Shown here: piece after piece, positions 1 to 8,427 of the stretch
Numbering within the stretch: the stretch's first letter is position 1
How the letters are laid out: every line of letters starts with the position of its first letter
IMG/VR virus record: IMGVR_UViG_2728369187_000001
Reading direction: 5' to 3' (one strand)
Origin: a virus
Lineage: Duplodnaviria > Heunggongvirae > Uroviricota > Caudoviricetes
DNA: 16,925 nucleotides
The notes under the pieces: model-generated
Database searches by the model: none
Told to the model about the DNA's origin: nothing
Seen by the model: the letters and a program-made list of their open reading frames with translations, nothing else
Translations under genes and position numbers: made by a program

Positions 1-546
1 GTTGCCCCACAATTGAGCAGTAACACCAGCATAAGCGGTTCCCTGTGTGTTTAATGTCATGGTTGACCCATGATTGGCATATTTGATCTGTAATGTGTCG
101 GTGTAATTAAATTTAATAAGCGCGTTACTTCCACGCTTGCTGTATGACATAAGGCAGTTACCCATTTTGAGGTATCCGCTGTCACCGGGAAAAATCATCG
201 TACCGCCATAAAGGTTGGTAAAGTCCCAGCAAATGTTTGTCCCGTTATCGTTCAGGTTAAGGCGCGCCATTGCGTTACCTGGACTGTCTATCCATTTTTT
301 GAGGTATAGTTCGCAATACGCATCCTCAACACCTGCCGTCCTGTGAGTTGAGCGGAGTTTTCTCCCAAATATAGCTCCGCTAGTTGGCAATACCTGCTGA
401 TACCATGAAGCAGACCAGTCACCAACGATTTCATCTTTGCTGTCTACATATAATTTTGTTGCGTAGCTTCCTTGATCGTTTTTTAATTTGCTAACGTCGG
501 ATTTTAGCGTTTTGATGTCATCAGGAATTACTGTCGATGTAGCCAT
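1..546 (-). CDS. Hypothetical protein, N-terminal 182 codons only (gene continues beyond window start); function unknown, possibly tail-fibre-associated or a moron
   Basis: ATG at 546-544 preceded by a GAGGAAG Shine-Dalgarno ~5 nt upstream; hand translation of the minus strand stays open for all 182 codons to position 1 (MATSTVIPDDIKTLKSDVSKLKNDQGSYATKLYVDSKDEIVGDWSASWYQQ...TAQLWGN). Absent from the supplied ORF track because no stop lies in the window. Starts 9 nt after the stop of the upstream ORF. Confidence 0.55.
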   Translation of the reverse strand, partial: MATSTVIPDDIKTLKSDVSKLKNDQGSYATKLYVDSKDEIVGDWSASWYQQVLPTSGAIFGRKLRSTHRTAGVEDAYCELYLKKWIDSPGNAMARLNLNDNGTNICWDFTNLYGGTMIFPGDSGYLKMGNCLMSYSKRGSNALIKFNYTDTLQIKYANHGSTMTLNTQGTAYAGVTAQLWGN

Positions 547-555
547 TTTTCTTCC

Positions 556-837
556 TCACATCCAGCCACGAAGTTGATGCTCAACAGCAACCACGTATTC
601 ATCGAATAATGATGATATTTGCGAATCATTAATGATGCGCACGTTTACAAAATATCCGTCTTCCTTAACACATACCGGTTCGCCATCTTCAGTCAGTTCT
701 CCGGTTTCTTTGTACACGTTACCTATCACGTCAATAAGAATATCATCCTGCATCGACTCGTCATCATAATAGCCAATACTCTCCATAAAGGCCGAAAAGT
801 CGGCCCTGTCGGCAAATTTGAGTGTTAAATCTTTCAT
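556..837 (-). CDS. Small highly acidic protein (93 aa), translationally coupled to the tail fibre gene; candidate tail-fibre chaperone, function unknown
   Basis: ORF track 556..837. Its ATG (837-835) overlaps the TAA stop of the upstream fibre gene (TAATG). About 21 Asp/Glu against ~7 Lys/Arg, no signal peptide or hydrophobic segment. I recognise no family; it does not resemble lambda Tfa. Confidence 0.6.
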   Translation of the reverse strand: MKDLTLKFADRADFSAFMESIGYYDDESMQDDILIDVIGNVYKETGELTEDGEPVCVKEDGYFVNVRIINDSQISSLFDEYVVAVEHQLRGWM

Positions 838-3680
838 TAGATTGACTCCCCCACCTGAGCATCAGTCAATGCCTTGTGCCATATTCTGAAATTCCTGACA
901 TGACCAAATAAATGACGTAACCCGGCTGTAGTCTGGCCTCCAATACGGATAATTGCGGTGTTCTGAATACAGGACCATGTGGTTTTTGTTTCGCTGGATA
1001 TATGCCCGTTACTTACTGAGCACGTAGACTGCTCTGACTTTACACGCATCCCCATAACCATTTTTTCAAGCGATGCGTTTTCGTTTACCCGTCTGTTAGC
1101 TCCTCCAATATCGCAATAAGGAAATCCGTCGTAATCTGTTGAACGACCGAAACCAAGAATAATAGCCGCTCCGGTTTGATGACCGCCGGTATCAAAAACA
1201 CGTGGCGCTGCATTTGGCGTTTTATACCAGTTCTTATGTACCTCACAAAGAACCGTAAAAGGAAGATTATAAAGATTATTCTTAATTGGAACTGTAACTA
1301 TATCGCTTGCGCGGGTCGCCGCCGTCGCTCCTGATATAATAAAAGATGATACACAAGGCCCATCTTCTACTTGTGGGGTGGCCAGATAAATATAGTCACC
1401 AGATACGGTTGCCCCGCTCTGCTTAGGAGAATACTGTATCTGAGAGCCTATTTTTAACTCCCCATCAATTGCCTGAATTGTTGCCTCTGCAAAAATCCAT
1501 CCGGTAGCTTCGTCCTTTCTGACTCTCGCTGTAATCCTTGAGGCAGCACCGCCTGTCATATTAATTTCAAGCGTTTGTGTATCAATATACGCATCACCAA
1601 GAAAAGTTGTTGCGCTACCGTCATATTTATCAAACCGGATACGCAACCTTACCTGCAGTTCTGTTTTAAAACGACATGAGGTTGTCACGTGTTTATTATC
1701 GCCTGAGACATCAACTGACTTTGTTGCAGCAATTGATGCCATATTAATGGCTGAGGTTTGCCCAATCAGAGAATCGTTGCAGACAAACTTTCCATAGGTA
1801 AAACCAAAATTATCCGTCCCTGTTTCGGGCACATCCATATTTGACGATCGCCCCCAACTGGCAGGGCTTTCCGAATTGAGCATGTAGTTTGTTCTTTGCC
1901 CCTCAATAAGCAGGCCATCACGTTCAAATCGTGGCTCGTCAATGGCAGCCTCTGTCAGCACACCAGATTTGTTAATATAGGTTGCTTTCGATGCACGTTT
2001 AAACTTAACAATCTTGTCGCCAGGCATCGTTATTTCATCGTCACCAATAACAATTTTTTTATATGATGGCGAAAAGCCCGTAATCATATCCAGCGAATCG
2101 TTAAATGGTATCCACACATCAGGCAGCGGCTGTAAGACATATTTATACGGCTCCGCAGCCTGGCTTGCGTACTCTCTGGCTGCATCTTCGCTTGCTTTAG
2201 CTGCCGTCTGGCTTGCTGCCGATGCTTTCGCTGAGTTCGCAGCCGCTGTTTCGCTCACCTTTGCGTTGGTTTCACTGGTTTTTGCTGCTTTTTGACTGTT
2301 AGCTGATGCAGTAGCAGAAGCAGCCGCCGCGCTTGCAGAACTGGCTGCGGCACTCTCGCTTTGGGCCGCTGCATCCTGACTGCTTTTCGCCGCAGTTTCA
2401 CTGGCTTTGGCATTCGTTTCGCTGGTCTTCGCTGCCGTCTGGCTGGACTTTGCGTTAGTTTCACTCGTCTTCGCAGCTTTCTGGCTGTTAGCCGCAGCAG
2501 TTGCTGATCCAGCTGCTGAAGTCGCAGAACCGGCTGCCGCGCTCTCGCTTTGGGCTGCTGCAACCTGGCTGTTTTTTGCTGCAGTTTCACTGGCTTTAGC
2601 ATTCGTTTCGCTGGTCTTCGCTGCCGTCTGGCTGGACTTTGCGTTGGTTTCGCTCGTCTTTGCGGCTGTCTCGCTATTTTTCGCGTTGGTTTCTGATTTT
2701 TTAGCTGCTGTTGCGGAGTTTGCCGATGCAGTCTGCGAGGCCGCTGCCGCCTGTGCGCTGTTAGCTGCATTCGTTTCTGAGGTTTTCGCCGCGTTCTTCG
2801 ATGATGCCGCTGCAGTTTCGNNNNNNNNNNACCAGCTGCTGAAGTCGCAGAACCGGCTGCCGCGCTCTCGCTTTCAGCTGCTGCAGCCTGGCTGTTTTTT
2901 GCCGCAGTTTCACTGGCTTTAGCATTCGTTTCGCTGGTTTTCGCTGCCGTCTGGCTGGACTTTGCGTTGGTTTCGCTCGTCTTTGCGGCTGTCTCACTGT
3001 TTTTCGCGTTGGTTTCTGATTTTTTGGCTGCTGTCGCGGAGTTTGCCGATGCAGTCTTTGAGGTCGCTGCCGCCTGTGCACTATTAGCTGCATTCGTTTC
3101 TGAGGTTTTCGCCGCGTTCTTCGATGATGCCGCTGCAGTTTCGGATTTCTTTGCCGCCGCTGCGCTCTGAGAGGCGGCTTCGGCGTTGCGTGCCACTTCT
3201 TCCACCATTGCCTCAAAACGACGCAATGCCTCCGGCATGACATCATCTTCCGTCATGGCACCGAGAAAATCATTCAGCGTACCTGGTCTGGAACCTTCAT
3301 AGACGGTAATGGTTCCGGCATGTGAAGGCGGAAAACCTTCAACAAGCAGGATAACGCTGTACTGGCCATACTCAACATCCATGCTGTAACGCCCGGCTTC
3401 ATCCGGATTTTCAGAGGCCACCGTGTTCACNNNNNNNNNNGCCTTCATAGACGGTAATGGTCCCGGCATGTGAAGGCGGAAAACCTTCAACCAGCAGGAT
3501 GACGCTGTACTGGCCATGCTCAACATCCATGCTGTAACGCCCGGCTTCATCCGGATTTTCAGAGGCCACCGTGTTCACCAGTACCGTGGTGCTGTTACGC
3601 TTTGCCTTCAGTTGAATAGTGCAGTTCTGTATTGGTTTTCCCGCACCATCTTTCAGCACACCTGAAATCTGTACTGCCAT
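837..3680 (-). CDS. stf: Side tail fibre protein (Stf-like): lambda-Stf-type N-terminus, long Ala/Ser/Thr/Lys/Glu repeat shaft, lectin-like (LamG/ConA-type) C-terminal domain; reading frame broken by two N10 gaps
   Basis: N-terminus MAVQISGVLKDGAGKPIQNCTIQLKAKRNSTTVLVNTVASENPDEAGRYSMDVE.GQYSVILLVEGFPPSHAGTITVYEG matches my recollection of the lambda Stf N-terminus. ATG at 3680-3678 with GGAG 6 nt upstream (the track start at 3686 is a GTG). Track ORFs 3411..3686, 2255..3550 and 837..2258 are pieces of one gene: hand translation shows the 837..2258 frame is open upstream of the GTG at 2258 (...ANSQKAAKTSETNAKVSETAAANSAK...), so that GTG is an internal Val. Frame changes occur only at the N-runs. 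C-terminus ends ...GLRHLFGHVRNFRIWHKALTDAQVGESI. Confidence 0.8.
2821..2830. other. Assembly gap (10 N) inside stf repeat region
   Basis: Run of n; flanked on both sides by ~310-nt near-identical copies (2509..2820 and 2832..3143). Confidence 0.95.
3431..3440. other. Assembly gap (10 N) inside stf 5' region
   Basis: Run of n; flanked by ~150-nt near-identical copies encoding VNTVASENPDEAGRYSMDVE[H/Y]GQYSVILLVEGFPPSHAGTITVYEG. Confidence 0.95.
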
Positions 3681-3691
3681 ACTCACTCCAC

Positions 3692-3719
3692 AAATAAAAA
3701 AGGCGCCATTTCTGGCGCC
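3692..3719 (-). terminator. Intrinsic (rho-independent) terminator between J and stf, comparable in position to a post-J terminator
   Basis: Minus-strand RNA: GGCGCC-AGAAAU-GGCGCC followed by UUUUUUAUUU (plus strand aaataaaaaaggcgccatttctggcgcc). 6-bp GC stem, 6-nt loop, 7-U tract, sited 20-50 nt after the J stop (3741) and just before the stf RBS. Confidence 0.6.
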
Positions 3720-3740
3720 CGTATTGGGGTTATAAATATT

Positions 3741-6700
3741 TCAACGGATACTGATACCGGAAGCAGCTTTTTTGGTCACAATCACCGTACAGTCTGTGAT
3801 GTTACCTGCGCCCTGATTGCCTTTCTGGAAAATCTTAAACTCCAGAGTGACGTTACCACCACCACTCGGCATATCAATAACCGCACTGTAACTACCGGGA
3901 ATGGCTCCTTTAGTTTCTCTGGATGCGATTAATACGCCATTTTTGCGAACTTCAAAACCATAACCCGTGTATCGCGTACCTCCCGGGTTATTACCGCTCC
4001 CCGGATCGTCATACGCCACACCGTTAAAAATAATGGGCGGAATAATGATTTGGCGGTCAAAGTTATGATCATCGTAAATGGTGACTGTAACCGTCCCGTT
4101 TGGTGTTTCCGTGTTACCCCACGTACCAGCCTTTTTCGGGAATGATTTGGATACAGTTTTAACGAAGTCACCTCTGACCTGGTTCGCCTCCAGCATGCCC
4201 TTAATCGTACAGTTTTCATTTACCGTGACATTATTGAGCGTCCCGGAGTTCGCATTCACGTTACCGCTGATATCGGCATTTCTCGCCGTCAGCCGCCCGT
4301 CCGGTGTCAGGGAAAATGCCGGAGGATTACCGCCGCTGGTAATGGTGGGAGCCGTCAGATACTTCAGGAACACTTCGTTCATGAATATCTGGTTGCCCTG
4401 CGCCACAAACATCGGCGTTTCATTCCCGTTTGCCGGGTCAATAAACGCGATACGGTTAGCGGCAACCAGGAACTGGCTCAGTTTGCCTTCCTCCGTATCC
4501 TCCATGCTGAGGCCAAGCCCCGCGACATAATGTTTGCCGTCTTTGGTCTGCTCAATTTTGACGCCCCACATGGCATTCCATTTATCGTTGGCGTCCTTCC
4601 ACTCTTTCGAAAACTCCTCCAGTCTGCTGGCGTTATCCTCCGTCAGCTCGACTTTTTCCAGCAGCTCCTTGCCGAGATGGGATTCGGTTATCTTGCCTTT
4701 GAAAAAATCCAGGTAACCTTCCGCATCATCGCTCGCCCGACCGACGGCCTCCACGAATGCCGATTTGCCAACGGTGTTCACACTGCGGATATAAAAGTAA
4801 TAATCATGGCCCGGTTTGATATTGATACTGGCGGCTATCCAGTACAGCGCCGTACCAAGATAGCGGGCTGTGGTTTCAACCTGCCTGATATCGGTAATCC
4901 GCTTTTCCGAGAACCAGAACTCAAACTGTACCGTCGGATCATAAATCGCAAGATGCGGCGTGGCGGTTATCTGAAAATAGCCCGGCGTCAGCTCAATCCT
5001 CGACGGTGCTGCCGGTGCGGCAATCCGGAACGATACCGATGCCGGATCGCCCTGCTGTCCCCACGCATTTACCGCCCGGACCGTCAGCGTGTAACGCCCC
5101 AGCGCCAGTTGCCTGAAGCGGTATGTGGTTTCCGTCGTCCGGGCCGTGCTGACCAGCCGCTCACTGCCGTCGTCCGCTGCCACGGTCAGGCGAAGCATAA
5201 AGCTCACGCCCTTCACCACCTTCGGCGTGTCCCAGCGTGCCAGCACCTGATATTCCCCGCTGTCTGCGGTGACTTCGGCAGTCAGGTGCTGCACCGCTGG
5301 CGGCGTGACACCATTCACCGTGCCGCTCTGGTCGCCGTCAAAGTGCGCCCCGTTATCCACGATGGCCTCTTTCTCCGGCACATGCTGCACGGCGGTGATG
5401 GCATACGTGCCGTCATCGTTCTCACGGATACTCACGCAGCGGAACAGGCGCTGGCGCAGCGTCGGCAGCTTCAGCCCCCACACGCTGTATTCAGCAACAC
5501 CGTCAGGAACACGGCTCACTTTTACCTTCACGCCATCGGTGACAGACTGAACCTCCACGCTGACCGGATTGCCATTTCCGTCAACCAGGCTTATCAGCGT
5601 GGTGCCGGAGGATGGCAGCATGATTTCACGGTCGAGCGTCAGTGTCCGGGTCTGGCTGTTCACCGCCAGCACGCGACCACCGGTGCTGATACCGGCATAG
5701 TCANNNNNNNNNNNNNNNNNNNNNNNNNNNNNNNNNNNNNNNNNNNNNNNNNNNNNNNNNNNNNNNNNNNNNNNNNNNNNNNNNNNNNNNNNNNNNNNNN
5801 NNNNNNNNNNNNNNNNNNNNNNNNNNNNNNNNNNNNNNNNNNNNNNNNNNNNNNNNGTTACGACAGTAACGGGCAATGGCCTGCGTGTCCTCCACAAGCT
5901 CTGTCGCCGTCTCCCAGCCGTTATCCGGGTCAATCCAGTTCACCTCAACGGCATTATGGCGGTCCTTCAGGGCGCTGAAGCTGTAGCGGAACGGCGCGCC
6001 ATCATCCGGCATCACCACATTACTGCGGTTATAGGTCCACACCTTATCCGACGGTCGGTCCTGCACGAACGTCAGCGTCTGCCCGTTCCATACCGGCATA
6101 CAGCGCATCGCCGAGCAGAAATCACTGAGAACATCCCACGCCTTACGCTGTGTGGTCAGGTAGGCATTACAGGAAATGCGCGGCTCCGTGCCACCAAAAC
6201 CGTCCGGCACCGACTGGTCGCAATTCTGGCCGATGACATACAGCGCCCATTTGTCCACATCCGCCGCACCAAGACGTTTACCCATGCCGTAGCGCGGGTG
6301 GGTCAGCATATCCCACAGACACCAGGCCATGTTGTTGCTGTATGCTGGCTTAAACGTTCCGTCCCAGATACCGCTGTATTGCCGCGTCTGCGGGTTATAG
6401 TTCGACGGCACCTGCAGAATGCGCCCGCGAAGATGATAATTACGGCTCACCTGCTGGCTGCCGAACTGTTCCGAGTCCACCTGCACGCCGACCAGTGCCG
6501 TGTTCGGGTAGCACTGTTTCACATCGATGATTTCGGTGTATGACGACCAGAGCGTTTTGTTCTGCAGCTGGTCTGTGGTGCTGTCCGGTGTCATCCTGCG
6601 CATCCGGATATTAAACGGGCGCGGCGGCAGGTTACCCACCACCACCGATGCCAGATACTGTGAGGTGGTTTTGCCTTTAATGGTGATGTCTTTTTCCGTC

Positions 6701-7147
6701 ACCCAGCCACCGTTACGCTGTATCTGAACCAGCAGGCGGACTTCCGACGGATTCCGGTCCCCCTTTGAGGTGGTTTCCACCAGTGCCTGCACACCGAAGG
6801 TAAAGCGCAGACGGTCGATGTTTGCAGACGTGATGGTCCGGGTGATCGGCGTGTCGTATTTCACTTCCGTACCCAGCACCGTCTCGGAGCCGGAGGATTC
6901 AAATCCCTCCGGCGGTGTCTGCTCCTGCTCACCTGCCCGGAAAACCACCGTGACACCGGAGATATTGGTATTCCCCTCACTGTCCAGCACTGGCGTACTG
7001 TTCAGCAGCACACTTTTTAATCCGTCCACCGGACCTTCAATCGGCCCTTCACTGATGGCGTCTATCACGCTCAGCATCTGCGTGGACTTCAGGTTGTCCT
7101 TCGCTTCGCGCGGGGTATGCCCCTTACTGCTGCCTTTNNNNNNNNNN
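3741..7147 (-). CDS. J: Host specificity / central tail fibre protein J (tail tip); start codon lies in an N-run, internal 153-N gap, divergent C-terminal receptor-binding region
   Basis: Track ORFs 5701..7209 (frame valid after the 7138-7147 gap: [41 protein letters not shown]...) and 3741..5933 (...[27 protein letters not shown]...) match lambda gpJ over ~1000 aa by recollection. The two pieces are in different frames because the N-run length is arbitrary. Stop TGA at 3743-3741. Confidence 0.9.
5704..5856. other. Assembly gap (153 N) inside J
   Basis: Run of n. From the lambda J alignment it replaces roughly 55 codons between ...ARYCRN and DYAGIS... Confidence 0.95.
7138..7147. other. Assembly gap (10 N) covering the J start codon
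   Basis: Run of n immediately 5' of codons KGSSKGHT; a GGAG lies ~10 nt upstream of the expected ATG. Confidence 0.95.
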
Positions 7148-7167
7148 CTCACACTCCAGAAACGACA

Positions 7168-7187
7168 AAACCGCCCTGAGGCGGTTT
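7168..7187 (-). promoter_or_regulatory. Intercistronic hairpin between I and J (8-bp stem, 4-nt loop), possible attenuator or mRNA structure
   Basis: Plus strand aaaccgcc-ctga-ggcggttt is a perfect inverted repeat. On minus-strand RNA it is followed by UGUCGUUUCUGGAG (interrupted U-rich stretch, then the J Shine-Dalgarno). Confidence 0.35.
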
Positions 7188-7205
7188 CACATAAAACGTT
7201 TTTCA

Positions 7206-7853
7206 TCAACGACCAATCACCACAACCTGACCACCGTCCCCCTCGTCTGCCGTGCTGATCTCCTGAGAAGCCACCCGCGACCCCACGCGCATTTCACCGT
7301 ACAGAACAGGCAGAACATTGCCCTGGGCAACCATGTTATCCAGTGATGAGAAATAGGTGTTCTGCTTACCGTTATCCGTGCTGGTCGCTGTGGGCGTCCG
7401 GGCTTTCGGTGCCAGCATCTGGGCCACACCACCCAGGATCATACTGGCCCCTGCCGCATACATGCCCGATACAGCCGCGGCACCCAGCCAGCCCACAGGG
7501 TTCCACCATGCCACCGCAATCAGCGCCGCCCCCAGCACCACCTGAAACACACCGCCACTTTTAGCTCCCGCCAGACGCGGCACGATGTGGATCACGGCAC
7601 CATTTGCCAGCGGCTCATTAAGACGGGCAGATAATTCGGTTTCACCTGCATCACGCCCGGCAATGCGCACCTGATACCAGCCGTCATTCAGTTTCTGACG
7701 AAACGCCGGGAGCTGTGTGGACAACGCCCGGATGGCTTCAGCCCCCGTTTTTACACGAAGGTCGATGCGGCGGCCAAATCGTTGTAAATCCCCGTAAAGG
7801 CAGATGCGTGCCATGCCCGGTGACGCCAGAGGGAGTGTGTGCGTCGCTGCCAT
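7206..7853 (-). CDS. I: Tail tip assembly protein I
   Basis: Track ORF 7206..7853, 215 aa: MAATHTLPLASPGMARICLYGDLQRFGRRIDLRVKTGAEAIRAL...TYFSSLDNMVAQGNVLPVLYGEMRVGSRVASQEISTADEGDGGQVVVIGR, essentially lambda gpI by recollection. Overlaps the 3' end of K by ~100 nt as in lambda. Confidence 0.9.
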   Translation of the reverse strand: MAATHTLPLASPGMARICLYGDLQRFGRRIDLRVKTGAEAIRALSTQLPAFRQKLNDGWYQVRIAGRDAGETELSARLNEPLANGAVIHIVPRLAGAKSGGVFQVVLGAALIAVAWWNPVGWLGAAAVSGMYAAGASMILGGVAQMLAPKARTPTATSTDNGKQNTYFSSLDNMVAQGNVLPVLYGEMRVGSRVASQEISTADEGDGGQVVVIGR

Positions 7854-8427
7854 TTGTCGGTATACCTCTCTCGTTTGCTCAGTTGTTCAGGAATATGGTG
7901 CAACAGCTCACCGTCGCCGCAGTAAATGGCGGCATGATTCGGCACCGATGAACCAAAACAGCACAGCAGCACATCGCCCGGTTGTGCTGATGACAACGGC
8001 ACCTGATACAACCCTGTGGCCTCCAGATTATCCAGATAGAGATTCTGACCGTGACGCCACCAGTCATCCTCGCGATGAAAATCCGGCATCTCAATCCCCG
8101 CCAGATGGTAAGCATCCCGGAACAGCGTGTAACAGTCCGTCACCCCGTGCTCAAAGCGCCGCCCGGAAAGATGTGGCACACAGCGGAACTTGTGAATCGC
8201 CCCCCGGCAGACCAGCCACCACGGCAAATCACTCTGCNNNNNNNNNNNNNNNNCTCTGCCCGCAGCCAGTCCTCCGGCGACATCCGGAAATACTCCTCCG
8301 GCTCACCGGAGATATTCACGCAGGGAAAATATCTTTCCCCCTCCGGTGTTCTCACCACGAAGCCGCACGACTCCGCTGGCGCACATCGCCGGGCGTGCGC
8401 CAGAATCGCTGATTCTGTCTGTGTCAT
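7751..8427 (-). CDS. K: Tail tip assembly protein K (N-terminal MPN/JAMM-type domain plus C-terminal NlpC/P60-type domain), interrupted by a 16-N gap
   Basis: Track ORFs 8140..8436 (MNPMTQTESAILAHARRCAPAESCGFVV...SPEDWLRAE) and 7751..8227 (PWWLVCRGAIHKFRCVPHLSGRRFEHGVTDCYTLFRDAYH...) match lambda gpK by recollection. Start taken at the MTQTESA Met (8427); an upstream ATG at 8436 is also possible. Confidence 0.85.
8238..8253. other. Assembly gap (16 N) inside K
   Basis: Run of n flanked by the same hexamer ctctgc on both sides. By comparison with lambda K it replaces ~28 codons, including the region expected to carry the HSHPGG metal-binding motif. Confidence 0.95.

Follow-up and report, generated by a model that had tools for sequence, protein, structure and literature searches.

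In phage lambda, the side tail fibre Stf starts with a Pfam PF08400 domain, continues as an Ala/Ser-rich shaft and ends, like T4 gp37, in a tip with Gly/His-rich HxH repeats; its gene lies after J and works with Tfa. In the gene transfer agent RcGTA, the head-spike fibre Rcc01080 (GhsB) is a 325-aa single chain without a LamG domain, whose N-terminal (I/L)-G repeat anchors it to the pentons of the capsid. An experimental structure covers only its residues 2-10 (PMC7296036), and the tagged protein binds Rhodobacter capsulatus cells in a capsule-dependent manner (PMC10218006). In T5-like phages branched fibres are established, and the genetics of phage DT57C show that the second fibre is attached through the first (PMC4728585). 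Here, we focus on a tail-fibre locus of IMG/VR record IMGVR_UViG_2728369187_000001, a caudoviral sequence of 16,925 nt (16.9 kb) which we refer to in its entirety as the window, and above all on its stf-like gene and the last 438 aa of the encoded protein (the tip, or module). Every gene of the window is on the minus strand, with a lambda-like tail module (tape measure, M, L, K, I, J) followed by the fibre region. We consider it probable, though well short of certain, that the locus as a whole encodes a mosaic fibre with a glycan-binding two-domain tip, a small partner protein (orf93) and, in most carriers, a docked second fibre.

The front part of the protein is that of a lambda-type fibre. 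The N-terminus of the intact protein matches PF08400 (E 1.8e-67), and its residues 1-342 share 58% identity with lambda orf-401, the N-terminal half of Stf (E 3e-79). As in lambda, the gene is found after J and an Ala/Ser-rich shaft follows the attachment domain, here with 'SETNAK..' repeats similar to orf-401 (2154..2819, minus strand, in frame with ORF 837..2258 and 100% identical to gp19 of phage Tritos). The tip, in contrast, has no similarity to orf-314, the C-terminal half of lambda Stf (best BLASTP E 2.7), and lacks the repeats of lambda Stf and T4 gp37, with no HxH motif in ORF 837..2258 as opposed to 8 in orf-314, and with histidine at 1.6% of the module as opposed to 5.1% of orf-314. 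A Peptidase_S74 domain, as in self-chaperoned fibres of the T5 pb1 and endosialidase type, was not found in the stf-like protein by a Pfam scan; in relatives, only the second fibre described below has one. Judged by these comparisons, the stf-like gene encodes a mosaic side tail fibre in which a lambda-type attachment domain and a probably trimeric, Ala/Ser-rich shaft are joined to a foreign 438-aa tip.

A sequence-only reading of the window had anticipated both the lambda-Stf-like N-terminus and shaft and the absence of the Stf/gp37 repeats from the tip. It was less exact in taking the last ~470 aa as one lectin-like end: the end is not gp37-like, as it claimed, but the 473 aa of the ORF consist of 35 aa of shaft, a connector and two domains. 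The connector (2019..2153, minus strand, module residues 1-45) stands out in the conservation profile by its PLPDVWxPxNDS motif.

The larger of the two domains, domain A (1299..2018, minus strand, module residues 46-285), is a CBM-cenC-like beta-sandwich (CBM, carbohydrate-binding module) homologous to the head-spike fibre of RcGTA. It scores 50.5 bits against NCBIfam family NF048003, where the curated cutoff is 36, and matches Rcc01080 (PDB 6tb9_F3) with an E-value of 1.2e-7 from the single sequence and 2.1e-33 with a profile. The homology spans nearly the whole protein (module residues ~46-285 against Rcc01080 residues 45-277) and includes the shared motifs EPRFE..GLLxE..TN and Q.E.G..SS.I.T...TRA.D; the tip already carries the RefSeq annotation 'phage head spike fiber domain-containing'. 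Unlike Rcc01080, domain A sits in the tail, between the lambda-type tail-fibre shaft to which it is fused and a LamG-type domain. No (I/L)-G repeat of the IALGLGLGL type precedes it, this place being taken by the Stf shaft and the PLPDVW connector. Since the gene sits in the tail module after J and such a repeat is absent, domain A is a relative of a head-spike domain rather than a head spike. More distant profile matches lead to Pa193 gp46, E217 gp45, Sf11 gp17 and a CBM-cenC protein. The three phage matches, however, are CBM-like domains of wedge or distal-tail proteins and not fibre tips, and they have neither the conserved N-terminal segment of domain A nor a LamG domain.

Domain B (840..1298, minus strand, module residues 286-438) is a concanavalin A (ConA)-like jelly roll of the LamG/pentraxin/CBM40 type. 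In the window's protein the Pfam match to Laminin_G_3 (PF13385) is weak (residues 417-469, profile positions 98-150 of 151, E 0.007) and its score of 16.9-17.2 bits lies below the gathering cutoff of 27.6. Homologues in the same alignment exceed this cutoff (P0160 with 44.8, P0222 with 35.3 and P0244 with 30.2 bits), their matches occupying the last ~120-150 residues and reaching the C-terminus, and 34 of 54 family members match Laminin_G_3 at E<=0.01. When the tip was tested for a two-sheet antiparallel beta-sandwich (jelly-roll) fold, it was found to have one. AbnA domain 4 aligns over 188 residues with the model of the whole tip and over 142 with domain B alone, a difference of about 45 residues; in the model, the domain B sandwich seems to gain further strands from other parts of the tip. 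A Foldseek search of predicted viral structures recovered the whole two-domain layout at TM scores of 0.6-0.7 and 14-21% identity, in many uncultured phages labelled 'Concanavalin A-like'. The C-terminal peptide on which the sequence-only reading had based its LamG/ConA-like assignment, GLRHLFGHVRNFRIWHKALTDAQV, lies at ORF residues 446-469 (852-923) inside the Laminin_G_3 match. The structural side of that assignment holds for domain B, the C-terminal part of the tip; it does not extend to the larger domain A, which is of the head-spike fibre family and not LamG.

Within the family, conservation of the module is concentrated in framework segments at residues 11-20, 51-90, 261-290 and 411-430, and the bodies of both sandwiches are variable, a pattern that would be expected of receptor-contact loops. 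In some members, P0061 (765 aa) and P0226 (4244 aa, with 6 matched stretches), part of the tip is duplicated internally or units similar to domain A occur as several tandem copies.

How did a tip of this kind come to be placed on a lambda-type shaft? The GC content is 0.39-0.50 over positions 1-2100 and 0.51-0.59 over positions 2101-3000, with a drop at the shaft-tip boundary from 0.54 (2101-2250) to 0.39 (1951-2100). DNA matches to unrelated phages (ESCO3, tunus and VogelGryff; T1-like, Seuratvirus and others) begin at positions 2132-2174, where a recombination junction between shaft and tip can be placed. Downstream of the cassette, relatives retain a relic of the 3' end of lambda Tfa, 36-39 aa long (Tfa residues 156-194) and ~90% identical (L001 9151-9258 in Tritos; L002 9151-9267), with the same breakpoint at residue 156 in more than 60 related loci. 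This relic appears to be the scar of a single replacement event which removed the lambda-type C-terminal half of Stf together with most of tfa. In Tritos it is followed by a gene for a PinR-type invertase (L001 9359-9949), a possible trace of an invertible fibre segment that has since decayed.

The module is also widespread. By tblastn it is found in 219 phage records, among them lambda-like phages (phage 21, HannyBb, Tritos, 2G7b), the T5-like AKFV33, T1-type phages (Drexlerviridae), Dhillonvirus, Queuovirinae and rV5-like phages, and it occurs in Seuratvirus-type and BASEL-collection phages as well. At least 80% of the DNA of positions 1-2300 (the tip, orf93 and the start of the second fibre) is present in 391 of 5,426 complete E. 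coli genomes (about 7%). Related loci taken from viral contigs are all at least 76% identical; the more distant synteny discussed below comes from GenBank phages and a species-level genome set. An E. coli-type tip is further found in records named 'Campylobacter phage' (C13, C11 and A12a; MG065692, MG065652 and MG065666) and 'Listeria phage' (OR849447, OR848352 and OR847733), at tip identities of 45-80%, with C13 80% identical at the DNA level; some of these records are very short, and they look like coliphage contamination or mislabelled hosts. Taken together, the GC drop, the common junction, the Tfa relic and the presence of the module in at least five phage groups make module exchange well supported as the likely origin of the tip, in agreement with what had been proposed from the sequence.

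Directly after the tip lies orf93 (556..837, minus strand), the start codon of which overlaps the stop codon of the stf-like gene (TAATG). It encodes an acidic protein of 93 aa (isoelectric point 4.05) which belongs to PHROG 1361 ('unknown function') and has no Pfam or NCBIfam match. The search found 304 homologues; among the 120 listed, names are limited to 'hypothetical' or 'prophage protein', almost all are 93 aa long (range 89-114) and none is fused to another domain. An orf93 homologue follows the tip at a distance of 0-4 nt in 92 of the 94 loci with room for it, and was not detected after the tip in the other two, alpha- or gamma-proteobacterial relatives. The loci with this pairing include those of phage 21 (54% identity for orf93), of AKFV33 (24%, E 3e-8), of rV5-like, Drexlerviridae and Seuratvirus phages, and of prophages of Silvania, Leclercia, Buttiauxella and Atlantibacter where the tips are only 26-31% identical. 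The divergence of orf93 follows that of the module, with 54% identity at 70% module identity and 24% at 37%. The main text of the rV5 proteomics paper is silent on this small open reading frame. As orf93 persists in loci without the second fibre, it is tied to the tip, and its position and linkage point to a putative tip-specific assembly factor or adaptor.

In lambda, Stf is paired with Tfa, whereas here no intact tfa is found and only the short 3' relic persists in relatives. Within the window no Tfa-type gene follows the tip, just as the sequence-only reading had stated; orf93 comes next, after which a second fibre gene begins (546..1). Its further argument, that a lectin-like tip explains why no chaperone gene is present, is undermined by a translationally coupled small gene linked to the tip in nearly all loci, and the second fibre had been overlooked as well.

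The gene of this second short fibre (fibre 2; 1..546, minus strand) starts at 546 with the N-terminal peptide MATSTVIPDDIKTLK and runs off the window after 182 codons. In relatives the protein has 346 aa and ends in an intramolecular chaperone domain, Peptidase_S74 (52.8 bits, cutoff 22), which in this locus would be beyond the window. The N-terminal peptide, M.T.T.IP.DI..LK, is invariant over four phage groups (lambda-, T5-, T1- and Seuratvirus-type). It is present downstream of orf93 in 69 of 91 loci, and six or more unrelated fibre bodies share it. When IMG/VR was scanned in reverse for this motif, orf93 was upstream at 114 of 114 sites and the tip at 101 of 101. In both scan directions closely related E. 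coli prophages make up most of the linkage counts, so that the cross-family cases are the independent evidence. From these arrangements the second fibre probably docks onto the tip; if so, the tip module may not bind the receptor on its own, nor need it be outermost among the elements that do.

The cassette has a true homologue in orf137-orf136-orf135 of the T5-like AKFV33, where the module is 37% and orf93 24% identical and fibre 2 has the same N-terminal peptide. DT57C differs in that the tip of its LtfA is of the intramolecular-chaperone type, with a proposed docking region related to phiEco32 gp14/gp15; in the cryo-EM paper on DT57C, LtfA is resolved only at its N-terminus. As an origin of the docking system, phiEco32 gp14/gp15 were rejected, with no similarity to the module or to fibre 2 when the first fibre was compared with gp14 and the N-terminus of the second with gp15 (BLASTP E 0.40 and 2.5). 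It is tempting, if somewhat beyond what we would bet on, to regard the tip, orf93 and fibre 2 as a self-contained and portable 'branched fibre' cassette that could be grafted on the fibre shaft of any phage, with orf93 representing a new class of small acidic tip-specific assembly factors or adaptors unrelated to Tfa, gp38 and gp57A, and with M.T.T.IP.DI..LK acting as a universal plug for interchangeable short fibres on a lectin-type tip.

A 97-aa open reading frame (PHROG 1443) follows fibre 2 in related loci (L001 8838-9131; L083 5108-5401). In phage 21 a 97-aa reading frame, a candidate counterpart, takes the corresponding position directly after orf93; its annotation there is that of a membrane protein with two transmembrane segments and a signal sequence. 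It could be a lysogenic-conversion or exclusion gene that is carried along with the fibre cassette.

The stf-like gene itself has to be read through a scaffolded assembly. The window contains five N runs (2821-2830, 3431-3440, 5704-5856, 7138-7147 and 8238-8253), two of which split the gene. Both of these 10-N gaps have duplicated flanks with 60-nt exact repeats, and J (3741..7209) and another tail gene are broken too. As the window is scaffolded or patched, apparent frameshifts and 'GTG starts' are artefacts. The gene begins with a 5' fragment (3441..3680, minus strand) that encodes the fibre-to-tail attachment domain (PF08400, E 6.6e-41), followed by the gap at 3431..3440, an assembly artefact, and by a second, overlapping fragment (2831..3430, minus strand) with the remainder of the N-terminal domain (PF08400, E 1.7e-47) and Ala/Ser-rich shaft repeats. 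The second gap, at 2821..2830, is located within the shaft repeats and shifts the apparent reading frame. ORF 837..2258 is therefore only the 3' part of the gene, and its GTG 'start' is not genuine, the frame being open upstream to this gap and encoding shaft repeats. Positions 3441-3683, 2831-3430 and 837-2819 correspond to overlapping stretches of the intact 790-aa gp19 of Tritos, at 99%, 97% and 100% identity; as all three match one intact protein, they belong to a single gene with its ATG at 3680. This ATG sits 60 nt past the stop codon of J with no lom in between. The spacer (3681-3740) holds a GC hairpin and a T-run, and Tritos has no lom here either. A prophage of E. coli WP4-S18-ESBL-07 that is nearly identical in other respects carries an Ail/Lom gene at the site (L002 4425-5024). 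Long antisense or out-of-frame open reading frames over the shaft (2407-2922 and 2014-2295 on the plus strand, 2761-3246 on the minus strand) are by-products of repeat composition, like lambda's annotated antisense orf206b within orf-401.

A model of how such a fibre might work can be put forward from these features. The tip would have arrived in a portable cassette of lower GC content (tip, orf93, short fibre 2 and the 97-aa reading frame, orf97), which would have taken the place of the ancestral lambda-type C-terminal half of Stf and most of tfa. Its two sandwich domains would bind surface glycans, be it O-antigen, lipopolysaccharide (LPS) core, capsule or enterobacterial common antigen, through hypervariable loops, and this binding would let the phage adsorb quickly and reversibly in a primary step, ahead of the contact between J and its protein receptor. 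The co-translated orf93, on which the tip would depend or with which it would work, would serve either as an adaptor or as a dedicated assembly factor. The tip of most carriers would also hold the short fibre 2, which would be plugged in by its invariant N-terminal peptide and folded by its own self-cleaving chaperone. Such a fibre would branch, as LtfA/LtfB of T5-like phages do, and would have two specificities.

Several points weigh against this model. Glycan binding by the tip, which we infer from fold and homology only, is plausible, and folds of the ConA-like/LamG type also mediate protein-protein contacts, as in neurexin, laminin and the HCN domain of botulinum neurotoxin. Two relatives of domain A, Pa193 gp46 and E217 gp45, sit in baseplate wedges, and the Pa193 paper mentions no sugar or carbohydrate binding. 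Several carriers of the tip come from isolations on K-12, a strain without O-antigen; on such a host the tip may be unnecessary or may have another ligand. What we propose for orf93, for how fibre 2 docks and for the oligomeric state of the tip is inferred from synteny alone, and the linkage counts overstate the number of independent observations. Lastly, we found neither a paper on the tip family nor binding data for it in the literature.

The same arrangement could be understood differently if the module were mainly a branching hub, with its conserved framework, with or without orf93, docking a second fibre that is the real receptor binder, and with the sandwiches as scaffolding. The invariance of the fibre 2 peptide across lambda-, T5-, T1- and Seuratvirus-type phages that share only the module and orf93 agrees with this idea, as do the strict co-occurrence in the reverse scan, the six unrelated fibre-2 bodies with one peptide and the precedent of branched fibres in T5-like phages (PMC4728585). 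On the other hand, fibre 2 is absent, with the module and orf93 retained, from 22 of the 91 loci, from phage 21 and from rV5-type phages, hypervariable sandwich bodies suit varying host glycans better than a fixed docking surface, and the RcGTA homologue of domain A is itself the binder. We thus regard a pure hub as unlikely. That the tip instead acts enzymatically, as a ConA-like superfamily member that degrades O-antigen or capsule by hydrolase or lyase activity on glycans, in the manner of a tailspike, strikes us as highly improbable.

A glycan-binding tip with a dedicated partner must also be weighed against the idea that orf93 is neither chaperone nor adaptor, and is an unrelated moron or regulator hitch-hiking beside a recombination-prone fibre tip. 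Its lack of a family assignment would fit, and in some loci (L057-L062) the module differs by 22% with orf93 nearly identical, which indicates recombination inside the cassette. Against this, the linkage holds down to 26-31% module identity in other genera, with 0-4 nt spacing and stop/start overlap, the divergence of orf93 tracks that of the module, and such morons are not normally kept across virulent T5-, T1- and rV5-type phages. Hitch-hiking is therefore improbable to us.

The tip on its own is an ordinary and widespread module that is already present in public databases. The conserved cassette of tip, orf93 and fibre 2 is modestly new and the one point that we did not find described. The first step in recognizing a host is determined by side and lateral tail fibres, and this type of tip is among the commonest in E. 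coli, with no functional study of it found in the literature. The architecture proposed here, a two-domain module of glycan-binding type with defined recombination boundaries, a small partner and a plug-in second fibre, would offer rules for host-range prediction and practical rules for swapping fibre tips in engineered phages, and orf93 could prove to be a new fibre assembly factor.

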